Source: a virus
Taxonomy: Duplodnaviria; Heunggongvirae; Uroviricota; Caudoviricetes
Length of the DNA: 10,633 nucleotides
Strand: one strand, 5' to 3'
Virus record (IMG/VR): IMGVR_UViG_2548876964_000002
Below, piece by piece: positions 4,364 to 10,633 of the stretch. The stretch's first letter is position 1. Every line of letters starts with the position of its first letter. The notes under the pieces are model-generated. The model was given only the letters and a program-made list of their open reading frames with translations. It was not told where the DNA came from and made no database searches. The translations under genes and the position numbers were made by a program.

Positions 4364-4636
4364 ATGTCCAGAAAAACAGAATTTAAAGGAACCGCAGCTT
4401 CTCGCCGTAGAGCTCGTCGTGCAAATCTGCAAAGTCAGGAGGCGATCAGCTCCGACAAGCTACACAGGCCAACCCCTTCACGAGTGGTCTTGCAATGCAA
4501 GCGCAAACCAGCAATGAGAGCAGAAGTGATAACTCTGACAACGTTGACCAGAAAATATGAAGGTTCAACTTGTCTTCCGAACGTAGCCATTTACGCGGCA
4601 GGCTACCGGAAATCAAAACAACTGACGGCGAGATGA
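4364..4636 (+). CDS. N: N-like transcription antitermination protein (90 aa)
   Basis: First gene after PL and nutL; GGGAGG Shine-Dalgarno before the ATG at 4364. Arginine-rich motif near the N-terminus (TAASRRRARRANLQ), as in boxB-binding N proteins. The track's upstream start at 4292 falls inside the leader hairpin and is rejected. Confidence 0.75.
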   Translation: MSRKTEFKGTAASRRRARRANLQSQEAISSDKLHRPTPSRVVLQCKRKPAMRAEVITLTTLTRKYEGSTCLPNVAIYAAGYRKSKQLTAR

Positions 4637-4694
4637 CTTGTGTTGGTCGCCAGAAAATGAAATTAGGCAGCAAACCACTTATTTGAGGTGAGAT

Positions 4695-4781
4695 ATGGAA
4701 GAAGAATTTGAAGAGTTCGAAGAGCATCCGCAGGATGTGATGGAACAATACCAGGACTATCCGTATGACTACGACTACTGA
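4695..4781 (+). CDS. Small hyper-acidic peptide (28 aa), lambda orf28-like
   Basis: MEEEFEEFEEHPQDVMEQYQDYPYDYDY, preceded by GAGGTGAG Shine-Dalgarno; the 3' end overlaps the ral start. Same position and size as the small ORF recalled between N and ral in lambda. Under the track's length cutoff. Confidence 0.5.
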   Translation: MEEEFEEFEEHPQDVMEQYQDYPYDYDY

Positions 4782-4965
4782 TAAAAATCAATGGTGTGGA
4801 CAATTCAAGCGATGCAATGGATGCAAGCTGCAATCGGAATGCATGGTTAAGCCTGAAGAAATGTTTCCTGTAATGGAAGATGGGAAATATGTCGATAAAT
4901 GGGCAATACGAACGACGGCAATGATTGCCAGAGAACTTGGTAAACTGAACAACAAGGCTGCCTGA
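4765..4965 (+). CDS. ral: Ral restriction-alleviation protein (66 aa)
   Basis: MTTTTDKNQWCGQFKRCNGCKLQSECMVKPEEMFPVMEDGKYVDKWAIRTTAMIARELGKLNNKAA matches the lambda Ral sequence as recalled, including the Cys-rich motif. Confidence 0.8.
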   Translation: MTTTTDKNQWCGQFKRCNGCKLQSECMVKPEEMFPVMEDGKYVDKWAIRTTAMIARELGKLNNKAA

Positions 4966-4982
4966 TGGCGGCCTTTATTTTT
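4956..4982 (+). terminator. Rho-independent terminator overlapping the ral stop codon (tL1-like)
   Basis: Stem ggctgcc/ggcggcc (one G-U pair), loop tgat containing the ral TGA, then tttattttt. Confidence 0.55.
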
Positions 4983-5030
4983 GGCATAAACAACAGAATA
5001 AACACAGCACTGAATTATTTGAGGTGAGAT

Positions 5031-5501
5031 ATGACAAAATCATGGAGCGTACCTTTTCCTGAATCAGAAACTGAACATGATGGAATGCCTGTTTTCTGGA
5101 GATTCCAAGCGACAGTTGAAGAAGATGGAATCAAAATATTCGCACTTCAATATATAGCTTTTCATCAGACAGATCATTATGCATGGTTGGTTCCTGCGCA
5201 TTGGATTGTTAATTTTAAACCAGCACCAAATCAGTGGTTACAGGAATGGAAACAAAGGAGAAATAGATATGCAATTAAGAAAGTAGCAAAAAATGCCGAA
5301 AGATCTTTTGCATTCCCGACGAAGAAACTTGCCATTGAAAGTTTATTGCGCCGGAAGAAGTACCATTTAATGAGAATCAAACAAGATTTGGCTGTTGTAT
5401 CAACTCTTGTTGATGGGATGAAGAATATTGATACATCAATACCAGATATTGAATATAACTTTGGACACAACCAAGAAACAGAAAATTGGGTGTTTTATTA
5501 G
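5031..5501 (+). CDS. Hypothetical protein (156 aa), visibly AT-rich, moron-like, no recognised family
   Basis: Clean ORF with GAGGTGAG Shine-Dalgarno and no predicted membrane segments. Composition is clearly more AT-rich than its neighbours by eye (not computed). Sits at the sieB / P22 gene 17 position and is bracketed by terminators at 4956-4982 and 5606-5631. Confidence 0.7.
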   Translation: MTKSWSVPFPESETEHDGMPVFWRFQATVEEDGIKIFALQYIAFHQTDHYAWLVPAHWIVNFKPAPNQWLQEWKQRRNRYAIKKVAKNAERSFAFPTKKLAIESLLRRKKYHLMRIKQDLAVVSTLVDGMKNIDTSIPDIEYNFGHNQETENWVFY

Positions 5502-6122: not shown

Positions 6123-6728
6123 ATGAGCAAAGAATTTTACGCAAGACTGGCAGCTATTCAGGAAAATCTGAACGCGCCCAAGAATCAGTACAACTCATTC
6201 GGTAAATATAAATACAGAAGCTGCGAAGACATTCTTGAAGGCGTTAAGCCGTTACTGAATGGTCTGTTTTTATCAATCAGCGATGAAGTTGTGTTGATTG
6301 GTAATCGGTATTACGTGAAAGCCACGGCAACTATTACCGATGGCGAAAACAGTCATACGGCAACCGCTCTTGCACGAGAGGAAGAAAGCAAGAAAGGAAT
6401 GGATTCTGCACAAGTTACGGGAGCTACAAGCTCTTATGCACGCAAGTATTGCCTCAATGGTTTGTTCGGCATTGATGATGCGAAAGATGCAGATACAGAC
6501 GAGCATAAACATCAGCAGAACGCAGCAGCAAAGCAATCAAAACCATCACCTACACCTGAACAGGTTCTAAAAGCATTCACTGACGCAGCATTGCAGAAAA
6601 ACACCGTAGAAGAGCTTAAACAGGCGTTCGCCAAAGCGTGGAAGATGCTCGAAGGCACACCGGAGCAGCACAAAGCGCAGGACGTTTACAACATCAGACG
6701 AGACGAATTAGAAGGAGCGGCTGCTTAA
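6123..6728 (+). CDS. erf: Erf-family single-strand annealing recombinase
   Basis: N-terminal two thirds (MSKEFYARLAAIQENLNAPKNQYNSFGKYKYRSCEDILEGVKPLL...GATSSYARKYCLNGLFGIDDAKDAD) closely matches P22 Erf as recalled; the C-terminal third diverges. Start set at the internal ATG at 6123. Confidence 0.9.
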   Translation: MSKEFYARLAAIQENLNAPKNQYNSFGKYKYRSCEDILEGVKPLLNGLFLSISDEVVLIGNRYYVKATATITDGENSHTATALAREEESKKGMDSAQVTGATSSYARKYCLNGLFGIDDAKDADTDEHKHQQNAAAKQSKPSPTPEQVLKAFTDAALQKNTVEELKQAFAKAWKMLEGTPEQHKAQDVYNIRRDELEGAAA

Positions 6729-7111
6729 TGGCACATTCGATTACTGTAAGACTAAACAAGCCCGCAAGAGAGTTTCAGGCCGGGGAAAATATCGGATTCA
6801 ACATCCGTGCTGGCGTTCAGTATTACGATCGCCAGACAAAAAAGAAAGAATGGACAAACTACAACGCCGTTGTATTTGCCAAGCCGGGAGCGCAAGCGGA
6901 TTACTACCGTAGTGTTCTTGTTGAAGGTGGCATTGTAGAAATTACCGGAGAAAACATCAGGGTTGATGTTTATCAGGGGCAAAATGGTCAATCAATCACT
7001 CTTGAATTACTGAATGCAAAGATTGGATTTGCAGCTTCAGGAAATGGCCCGCAGCAGCAAAGTAGTAACCAGCAGAACACCCCTGTATACGACGATTCCA
7101 TCCCATTCTGA
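6728..7111 (+). CDS. Phage single-stranded DNA-binding protein-like (127 aa)
   Basis: ATG overlaps the erf stop (TAATG). Gln/Gly-rich linker and acidic tail ending DDSIPF, resembling the SSB C-terminal DDDIPF tip. Start set at the internal ATG at 6728. Confidence 0.65.
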   Translation: MAHSITVRLNKPAREFQAGENIGFNIRAGVQYYDRQTKKKEWTNYNAVVFAKPGAQADYYRSVLVEGGIVEITGENIRVDVYQGQNGQSITLELLNAKIGFAASGNGPQQQSSNQQNTPVYDDSIPF

Positions 7112-7134: not shown

Positions 7135-7428
7135 ATGCCAGCGCCTCTGTATGGTGCGGATGACCCGCGCCGCTGTTCCGGCAATTCCGTATCGGAGGTG
7201 CTGGATAAATTCAGGAAAAATTACGACCGGATAATGTCGCTACCGCAGGAAACAAAAGAGGAAAAGGAATTTCGCCACTGCGTATGGCTTGCAGAGAAAG
7301 AAGAACGCGAGCGAATTTACCAGACATCAATCCGACCATTCCGCAAAGCCACATATACCCACTTCCCTGAAATTGACCCGCGCCTGCGTAATTACCGCTC
7401 ACGCTATGGCGCTATCAGTAATAACTGA
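7135..7428 (+). CDS. Hypothetical protein (97 aa); possible Abc2-like anti-RecBCD protein
   Basis: AAGGA Shine-Dalgarno; follows the erf-ssb module, where P22-like phages carry abc genes, and the size fits Abc2. Sequence identity could not be verified from memory. Confidence 0.6.
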
Positions 7429-10248: not shown

Positions 10249-10633
10249 TGAACCGCCCCGGAAATCCTGGAGACTAAACTCCCTGAGAAAGAGGTAAACA
10301 GGATGACTAAAAATACTCGTTTTTCCCCCGAAGTCCGTCAGCGGGCGATTCGTATGGTTCTGGAAAGTCAGGATGAATATGACTCACAGTGGGCGGCAAT
10401 TTGTTCCATTGCCCCAAAGATTGGCTGTACGCCGGAGACTCTGCGTGTCTGGGTTCGCCAGCATGAGCGGGATACCGGGGGCGGTGATGGTGGGCTCACC
10501 AGCGCTGAACGTCAGCGTCTGAAAGAGCTGGAACGTGAAAATCGTGAACTGCGCCGCAGTAACGATATCCTTCGCCAGGCTTCCGCTTATTTTGCGAAGG
10601 CGGAGTTCGACCGCCTCTGGAAAAAATGATGCC
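10249..10633 (+). mobile_element. IS3-family insertion sequence (IS629/IS1203-like), left end and OrfA; continues past the window
   Basis: Left terminus begins TGAACCGCCCCGG at 10249. OrfA follows, and ATGATGCC at 10626 matches the recalled IS629 OrfB start (MMP...) in the overlapping frame. Confidence 0.8.
10303..10629 (+). CDS. IS3-family transposase OrfA (HTH plus leucine-zipper subunit)
   Basis: 108-aa [25 protein letters not shown]...[35 protein letters not shown] matches IS629-type OrfA as recalled. Confidence 0.9.

Follow-up and report, generated by a model that had tools for sequence, protein, structure and literature searches.

A putative acidic peptide gene, orf28, conserved upstream of ral in lambdoid phages, and its possible role in anti-restriction

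Location and features of orf28

The stretch of DNA analyzed here (10,633 nucleotides (nt), referred to below as the window; IMG/VR virus record IMGVR_UViG_2548876964_000002, Caudoviricetes) represents the early genes of a lambdoid prophage, and its top matches are Escherichia coli O111 prophages with 100% identity. In the direction of pL transcription it carries cI, an N gene of the 933W type (4364-4636), orf28, ral and a gene encoding a 156-amino acid (aa) protein, followed farther downstream by erf, an SSB-like gene and abc2. The subject of this report is orf28 (4695-4781, plus strand), which is composed of 28 codons, beginning with ATG, and a TGA stop, and encodes the peptide MEEEFEEFEEHPQDVMEQYQDYPYDYDY. 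Its limits and translation are exactly those given in an earlier sequence-only reading of the window, in which a hyper-acidic peptide coupled to ral had been proposed.

The predicted product contains eight Glu and four Asp residues (eight of the acidic residues lie within positions 2-10), no Lys or Arg and one His; its net charge is -12 and 7 of the 28 residues are aromatic. The claim that basic residues are lacking thus holds for Lys and Arg, and has to be qualified for the single, weakly basic His. The strongly negative charge makes the peptide an extreme outlier among the 184 open reading frames (ORFs) of at least 20 aa found in the six frames of the window, with -0.43 per residue against -0.11 for the next one. 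No ORF of at least 25 aa with a charge of -10 or lower and without Lys and Arg was found in 200 shuffled windows.

A near-consensus Shine-Dalgarno (SD) sequence, GAGGTGA (4685-4691), precedes the gene, and the end of its GAGG core is placed 6 nt from the orf28 ATG, i.e. at the optimal distance, which bears out the strong SD reported previously. The ral gene (4765-4965, plus strand; 66 aa), identified by its match to PF11058 (E=3e-47) and phrog_1055, is read in the +1 frame relative to orf28, and its first 17 nt (4765-4781) overlap the 3′ end of orf28, as had been noted. The core of the ral SD, AGGA (4753-4756, plus strand), lies 8 nt before the ral ATG at 4765, inside orf28 codons Gln20-Asp21. 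The CAGGA motif is kept in 10/10 aligned ral-proximal orf28 homologues.

All 28 residues are identical to those of the product of phage lambda J02459 34271-34357 (complement), known under the aliases lambdap47, GenBank AAA96576.1 and PHROG 16060. The gene is named differently in different records: it is wrongly called "ral" in J02459, "orf28: hypothetical protein" in NC_001416, and "orf28; similar to lambdap47" in DE3. The profile phrog_16060, with unassigned function, matches the peptide over residues 1-28 of 28 (E=7.1e-19), and divergent homologues match it with E-values from 3e-7 to 4e-10; the window ORF shows both this profile match and the position typical of PHROG 16060 members, i.e. in the pL operon after N and overlapping ral. 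As a sequence feature, orf28 is therefore an already known lambda gene, and it is a member of no characterized family. No function has been assigned to it in the searched literature and databases, in line with what the sequence-only reading stated of the lambda counterpart, and a lambda interactome paper names neither orf28 nor ral. Knock-down of lambda orf28 by CRISPR interference (CRISPRi) caused no plaque defect, so the gene is non-essential (PMC10695390); in the other literature found it is only deleted jointly with ral (PMC2327257).

Of 5,426 complete E. coli genomes, 883 contain the ORF; when the best 12 genome matches were inspected, only Ral was annotated under the match, and the peptide was not. 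It is also unannotated in the records of P22-pbi and BTP1, and appears to be systematically missed by annotation, which illustrates how very small, highly charged ORFs escape it. Standard tryptic proteomics would probably miss the peptide as well, because it contains no Lys or Arg.

Conservation of the orf28 reading frame

Homologous loci were gathered in three ways: by anchoring on Ral, by retrieving divergent Ral proteins from a protein database, and by searching with degenerate DNA patterns. The Ral-anchored sample (80 viral loci) carries no bias regarding the peptide. The pattern search fixes the peptide core, and codons fixed by the pattern were excluded from the selection tests.

An acidic ORF of 22-28 codons was found at the same place, 5′ of ral, in P22, BTP1, ST160, Providencia, Proteus, Pantoea, Erwinia and Kluyvera, and the peptide also precedes ral in Cronobacter-type and further lineages. 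Examples of divergent homologues are MEEDIEEFDEHPDDDMRQYQDYPYEYDY and MEEFDQHPDDDMSQYQDYRYEY. Each inspected homologue is preceded by a purine-rich SD-like motif (of unscored strength) and starts with ATG or GTG. The family shares the conserved core F-[DE]-[EQD]-H-P-x-D-[DV]-M-x-x-Y-Q-[DE]-Y, mostly followed by a Tyr/Asp tail.

Ten lineages from Escherichia, Salmonella, Kluyvera, Pantoea, Erwinia, Proteus and Providencia were aligned. The pooled ratio of nonsynonymous to synonymous differences per site (pN/pS) in the orf28 frame of these ten sequences is 0.14, with pN of 0.12-0.15 and saturated synonymous sites (pS above ~0.75), which makes this and the following ratios approximate. For codons 2-19, which lie 5′ of every ral signal, pN/pS is 0.18, again with saturated synonymous sites. 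Values in the other five frames range from 0.31 to 5.85: three of these frames carry stops, including antisense frame 1 (0.31), which is interrupted in 10/10 sequences, and the two that are open have ratios of 1.78 and 3.07. No frame besides that of orf28 is both open and low in pN/pS. The aligned homologues are 22-28 aa long and differ by whole codons, down to ~60% peptide identity, and the codon for Ser17 is AGT, AGC or TCT depending on the lineage. The low pN/pS confined to one frame, the whole-codon length changes and the Ser17 codon switches together indicate that orf28 is a protein-coding gene under purifying selection on its amino acid sequence. From this selection and from the SD layout we infer that it is translated.

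The Ral-anchored sample gave a similar picture. The ORF is present upstream of ral in 80/80 loci, in which nine synonymous variants are carried by 57 copies and seven nonsynonymous variants by only eight (per-site ratio of 0.12). A premature stop (E4*) occurs in one of the 80 loci, and an in-frame 9-nt deletion in one. The conservation analysis suggested in the sequence-only reading has thus pointed to a constrained reading frame in both samples; the disruption of the frame among homologues that this reading had named as a ground for refutation is not tolerated.

Linkage to ral and separability from it

The peptide stop and the ral start overlap by 8, 11 or 17 nt, and an overlap is kept wherever it was measured. 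This arrangement would provide for co-expression of the two genes and possibly for translational coupling.

Two Ral lineages, the Citrobacter type and the Kluyvera georgiana type, are devoid of the peptide. In the Citrobacter type (our loci L237-L239 and L284), the gene just before ral, which overlaps it at ATGA, is unrelated to orf28; it encodes 66 aa (MAKITFGFC...) and has no Pfam or PHROG match. Kluyvera georgiana-type ral (L281/L282, 1201-1401) has a GTG start placed directly at the SD of the ribosome-binding junction described below.

The opposite situation, i.e. the peptide without an intact ral, was also found. At least ten E. coli-phage haplotypes, including phage ECP1, have a frameshifting 103-nt deletion in ral and keep the peptide ORF. 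The deletion lies between TGGRCAAT microhomologies, TGGACAAT and TGGGCAAT. In phage ECP1 (L086) it is located at about 1020-1100, equivalent to positions 4797-4907 of the window, and the allele occurs in several N and flank backgrounds; it has either been spread by recombination or originated repeatedly. Codons 1-23 of the peptide are unchanged in 9/10 haplotypes of this class and are not more variable than elsewhere, while codons 24-28 are changed in 5/10 against 9/108 (Fisher p=0.002, indicative only, as is any Fisher test here, since the haplotypes share ancestry and are not phylogenetically independent). Because codons 24-28 vary more in the deletion class, the last five orf28 codons of lambda-like phages are probably constrained in part by ral.

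In further viral and metagenomic contigs the peptide stop adjoins a GGCTGCC... terminator hairpin, with at most a remnant of a few codons of the ral frame (e.g. MTTEAA, MKIKAA, MSSIIEAA). In 14 distinct ral-less sequences pN/pS is 0.27 for the codons not fixed by the search pattern and 0.19 for the C-terminal Tyr/Asp tail. Since these ratios stay low without ral, tail included, the peptide as a whole is selected for its own sake and not merely through the overlap with ral.

These data also bear on the idea that orf28 is a non-functional ORF, open only through its shortness and through overlapping signals, i.e. the SD upstream of it and the SD, start and N-terminal codons of ral. The ral SD, ATG and first codons are indeed contained in the final 29 nt of orf28, the excess of changes in codons 24-28 of the deletion class would follow naturally, and the E4* allele and the 9-nt deletion are compatible with a dispensable frame. 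The ratio for codons 2-19, the whole-codon length differences among distant homologues and the constraint on the tail where ral is absent are all contrary to it. The selection data already disfavor this explanation, which we consider very improbable.

The peptide occurs without ral and Ral occurs without the peptide; therefore orf28 is not simply an accessory or a leader of ral. The link to ral that had been proposed from the sequence is real at the genomic level, as an overlap in most Ral lineages examined, and is not obligatory. This weighs on the view that the peptide is a dedicated partner of Ral (a solubilizer, inhibitor or assembly factor) that binds Ral and has no activity of its own. 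The tight overlap in most lineages would suit such a role, and Ral is a mildly basic protein of net positive charge with the invariant residues C11, C17, C20 and C26. Natural fusions of the two ORFs exist, and one recombineering study, in which inclusion of orf28 is unstated, saw little effect of cloned ral by itself (PMC9410887). A partner without Ral to bind would nevertheless not be expected to remain under selection where ral is gone or where an unrelated Lar-family protein is present instead, nor would Ral be expected to occur alone. The fusions, moreover, are rare frameshift or deletion variants, and the AlphaFold2 model of one of them, itself of low confidence, shows no confident docking of the two parts. 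We regard a dedicated Ral partner as quite improbable.

The fusion ORFs are of two kinds: P0001 and P0006 (89 aa) result from a 1-nt deletion (...EQYQTIR-MTTTID...), and P0011 (85 aa) from a 13-nt deletion (...DYDY-WCGQF...). P0001 is the representative of a 76-sequence cluster, and the fusions are either real alleles or assembly errors. A programmed orf28-ral frameshift was considered and rejected, as the 89-aa fusions are 1-nt deletion variants and no slippery site was seen.

Ral proteins 97-100% identical to that of lambda were also encountered in species-representative genomes of unrelated taxa (L207-L222, L224, L227, L228, L230), among them Pseudoxanthomonas, Nocardioides, Shewanella, Paenibacillus, Bradyrhizobium, Vibrio and others, where they sit on contigs that are short or of low coverage. 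These contigs, which made up most of the result of a genome-contig scan for Ral and several of which measure ~48.4-48.5 kb, look like lambda DNA contaminating the assemblies.

Association with a Lar-family gene

In 12 ral-less loci of one clade, the gene directly upstream of the peptide encodes a 77-aa restriction-alleviation protein of the Lar family (PF14354, 36.6 bits against a cut-off of 28.6; also phrog_599). Its TGA stop overlaps the GTG start of the peptide gene within GTGGGTGA. Among 161 distinct loci, 123 carry Ral, none of them with Lar within 1.5 kb, and the 12 with Lar are all without Ral. The only genes found to overlap that of the peptide thus encode Ral and Lar, two unrelated and mutually exclusive families of restriction-alleviation proteins, and this is the best available hint to its function.

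The same neighborhood can be read in another way. The peptide might act in trans on a target unrelated to restriction, with ral and the Lar gene as mere neighbors in a hot spot of accessory genes; candidate targets are other basic or DNA-binding proteins of the host or the phage, e.g. nucleoid proteins, nucleases or helicases to which acidic tails of the SSB type dock, and the arginine-rich N protein. This would accommodate the selection on the peptide where neither Ral nor Lar adjoins it, the two Ral lineages without the peptide, and the presence of unrelated genes in the post-N slot of other phages, e.g. L0079 in 933W. The acidic/aromatic tail is also similar in style to the end (...YDDSIPF) of the SSB-like ORF at 6728-7111. 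Against this reading, the peptide is the same in phages with different N types (lambda, 21, P22 gp24, 933W) and thus does not co-vary with N. As to an SSB-type tail, which is Asp-rich with an obligatory aromatic/hydrophobic end, the peptide family departs from it: most members end in ...DYDY or ...EYDY, but natural variants under selection end in ...YQDYED, ...DYEN, ...YDH or ...YDS. The sole genes found to overlap that of the peptide, moreover, belong to two unrelated restriction-alleviation families. Overall, we rate such a target as possible, but not as likely.

A third putative neighbor of this kind, the "anti-restriction protein" phrog_14587 of phage ECP1, was rejected as a replacement for Ral, since it is also located downstream of Ral-positive loci (5 against 1). 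Loci of the Lar type additionally contain, after the terminator, a hydrophobic ORF of ~27 codons (MISNGNYIFIWLVTGVLMGLGFIAGGC; L254 4813-4896; also L241, L252, L259 and L246) with its own GGAGG. This ORF overlaps the start of the next gene (TAAATG), has no PHROG match, and possibly encodes a small membrane peptide.

The 19-nt junction and the orf28-ral cassette

The SD and the start codon of orf28 (ATG, 4695-4697) are both part of a 19-mer, TTATTTGAGGTGAGATATG, located at 4679-4697 (plus strand). A second exact copy, present as a direct repeat at 5015-5033 (plus strand), provides the SD and the ATG (5031) of the 156-aa ORF, which belongs to phrog_1636 and corresponds to L0079 of phage 933W. 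Two matches to the 19-mer were found in none of 200 shuffled sequences. Between the copies, a terminator-like hairpin, AAGGCTGCC-TGAT-GGCGGCCTT followed by TATTTTTGGC (4954-4985, plus strand), holds the ral stop codon in its loop; in ral-less relatives the terminator hairpin directly follows the peptide gene.

The junction sequence also precedes other genes in 933W, HK97, VT2-Sakai and other phages, and in many further lambdoid phages the stretch shared with the window is limited to the ~40 nt of the junction. Phage 933W has N, a single junction copy and then L0079 directly, without an orf28-ral cassette. Because two exact 19-mers bracket orf28 and ral in the window and 933W has the junction alone, orf28, ral and the hairpin are a 336-bp cassette placed between two copies of a portable ribosome-binding junction. 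Recombination between these copies would restore the 933W order N-junction-L0079. This illustrates how accessory cassettes of lambdoid phages can be moved from one copy of a conserved 19-nt ribosome-binding junction to another.

In phages with an N gene of the 21/lambda type, the TGA within the junction is the N stop codon; therefore the ancestral order is the N stop, 8 nt, the orf28 start and the 17-nt overlap into ral. In the window, positions 4637-4686 (part of the ORF 4570-4686), 3′ of the stop of the 933W-type N gene, are an out-of-frame fossil of the C-terminus of lambda/21-type N (...GEMTCVGRQKMKLGSKPLI*), whose TGA belongs to the SD of the junction. The fossil, which phage 933W carries as well, is the trace of an old recombination event, in which the body of N was swapped, and the 3′ end of N and the junction were kept.

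Other features of the window are more distant from orf28. The SSB-like ORF (6728-7111), which has an acidic/aromatic tail (...PVYDDSIPF) and no Pfam match, adjoins a gene for a P22-type Abc2 anti-RecBCD protein (7135-7428; PF11043). The end of the window (10303-10629) encodes OrfA of an IS3-family transposase (PF01527), which suggests an insertion sequence (IS) inserted in the prophage.

Fold, domain and RNA structure predictions

In an AlphaFold2 model of the natural fusion P0011 the peptide part has no secondary structure and per-residue confidence values (pLDDT) of 50-55, the whole model being of low confidence (mean 60). The peptide is most likely intrinsically disordered, as far as this model can tell. 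For a domain search, a profile of 85 positions, Ral columns included, was built from the P0011 fusion and 12 copies of the window peptide. In a scan of 1.84 billion representative proteins, profile positions 1-28 were not found as a domain of any larger protein; the matches were stand-alone small ORFs, 5′ extensions introduced by gene callers, and contig-end chimeras.

At the RNA level, the minimum free energy (MFE) of the region is unremarkable (z = -0.79), the consensus energy is -3.5 kcal/mol with no useful covariation, and Rfam gave no match. A predicted pairing of 6 bp, in which AUAUGG at the start of orf28 would bind CCGUAU at the start of ral, was discounted as evidence, because coding constrains both of its arms.

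The latter results concern the possibility that orf28 is a cis-acting leader, whose N-terminal acidic run pauses or aborts the ribosome by intrinsic destabilization, relieved by the ABC-F factors EttA and YbiT, and thereby sets ral translation or terminator hairpin formation, the peptide itself being functionless. E. coli ribosomes pause on, or are destabilized by, acidic residues encoded in the first 30 codons, and this is used in MgtL regulation (PMC11282234, PMC11162784). The acidic N-terminus of orf28, the position of the ral SD and ATG inside its last 29 nt and, in ral-less loci, the direct contact of the peptide stop with the terminator stem would all fit such a leader. The selection on the non-acidic residues H11, P12, M16, Y19, Q20 and Y22 and on the tail, even without ral, does not. 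No alternative RNA structures and no covariation were found among the aligned homologues, and the acidic run is broken by Phe and variable in length. In addition, ral has its own SD, and in the Kluyvera georgiana type it is read directly from the junction. Finally, N-modified polymerase passes terminators anyway. A cis-acting leader of ral is thus unlikely.

Possible role of the orf28 peptide

Type I restriction-modification systems are among the barriers against which Ral and Lar are directed, and our tentative reading, which we hold with less than even confidence, is that the orf28 peptide acts in trans as an acidic decoy, most probably for a component of such a system. Following N as the next cistron of the pL operon, orf28 would be read from a strong, portable ribosome-binding junction and, judging from the gene layout, its product would be made early and abundantly. 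The product would be a disordered, polyanionic and aromatic-rich peptide of 22-30 residues, able to occupy a basic nucleic acid-binding surface of a host protein. That this protein may belong to the type I restriction-modification machinery is suggested by the usual neighbors of the peptide, Ral and Lar, which act on it. The peptide would then be an accessory early anti-restriction factor, genetically separable from Ral, and the position after N, combined with a strong SD, is where an anti-defense function would have to be expressed.

Several observations weigh against this interpretation. To our knowledge, 28 residues is far shorter than any known DNA mimic. Searches of Pfam, NCBIfam and PDB sequences with the peptide at permissive E-values gave no match, and none to Ocr or ArdA. 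The Lar association amounts to about one evolutionary event, because it is essentially confined to one clade, and several loci (L242, L250, L253, L265, L266, L268, L276) carry the peptide alone, with neither Ral nor Lar adjoining. Neighborhood is weak evidence of shared function here, since the post-N region is a hot spot of accessory genes. As the ral-less loci were found through the core motif, those in which the peptide has decayed are not visible in our sample. The CRISPRi knock-down, performed in a host without active type I restriction, gave a null result (PMC10695390). The suggestion that the peptide is a DNA mimic or anti-restriction factor therefore retains its basis in composition and neighborhood, and is without the support of homology to Ocr or ArdA or of a predicted fold.

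A broader version, which we find doubtful, is that the peptide is an overlooked common component of type I restriction-alleviation modules, working alongside Ral or Lar. It might then engage EcoKI-type enzymes at their DNA-binding surface or at the HsdM N-terminal surface. With unmodified DNA as substrate, Ral stimulates methylation by EcoKI via HsdM's N-terminal domain, and no other mode has been described (PMC12707154). If true, the peptide would be the smallest anti-restriction factor known, and such a component could account for the small effect of cloned ral by itself in the recombineering study mentioned above (PMC9410887).

The gene is already annotated in lambda; a function for it would be new. 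Compared with the searched literature, the novel elements are the Enterobacterales-wide signature of purifying selection, the separability from ral, the association with Lar and the junction-bracketed cassette. In the early left operon of lambda, the best-studied phage, orf28 has been listed with unassigned function since the genome was sequenced. A gene under selection, tied to Ral and Lar yet separable from them, bears on how these proteins alleviate type I restriction, and if its target is unrelated to restriction, the peptide would still be a new small host-takeover factor.

Comparison with known systems

The closest relative is lambda orf28 itself, which shares with the window gene all 28 residues, the overlap with ral and the hairpin downstream. 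Lambda differs in having sieB/esc as an insertion that separates N from orf28, and a slightly degenerate junction (CTATTTAAGGTGATATATG), whereas in the window orf28 comes directly after N, an order also present in phage 21/DE3 and BTP1.

Leaders of the MgtL type, dependent on EttA/YbiT, have a layout that orf28 shares: a short ORF with early acidic residues that overlaps the start of the next gene (PMC11282234). Unlike in these leaders, the whole orf28 peptide is selected, also without a downstream gene; at least 14 ral-less sequences under selection are independent of ral or of an RNA switch, and no switch-like RNA structure was found in the orf28 region.

With Ocr (T7 gp0.3) and ArdA the peptide has in common a high density of Asp and Glu (12 in 28 residues), i.e. 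the dense negative charge characteristic of DNA mimics, together with predicted early expression and a neighborhood of type I anti-restriction genes. ArdA is a protein of ~166 aa. The peptide differs from both in having no sequence similarity to them and no predicted fold that would array its carboxylates. Ocr and ArdA block EcoKI through DNA mimicry (PMC9410887; PMC2731889, PMC3439906), and the Ocr monomer is composed of 116 aa, against 28 for the peptide (PMC3439906).

Ral (PF11058) and Lar (PF14354) are cysteine-rich proteins of 60-77 aa unrelated to the peptide, and Ral is not a DNA-binding blocker (PMC12707154). They occupy the same operon position, their frames overlap that of the peptide, and they are presumably co-expressed with it. 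The T4 Stp peptide, of 26 residues, acts on the type I enzyme EcoprrI, its effects including the triggering of the PrrC anticodon nuclease. Stp is not acidic and is dissimilar in sequence to orf28, but it shows that a peptide of such size can act on a type I restriction system.

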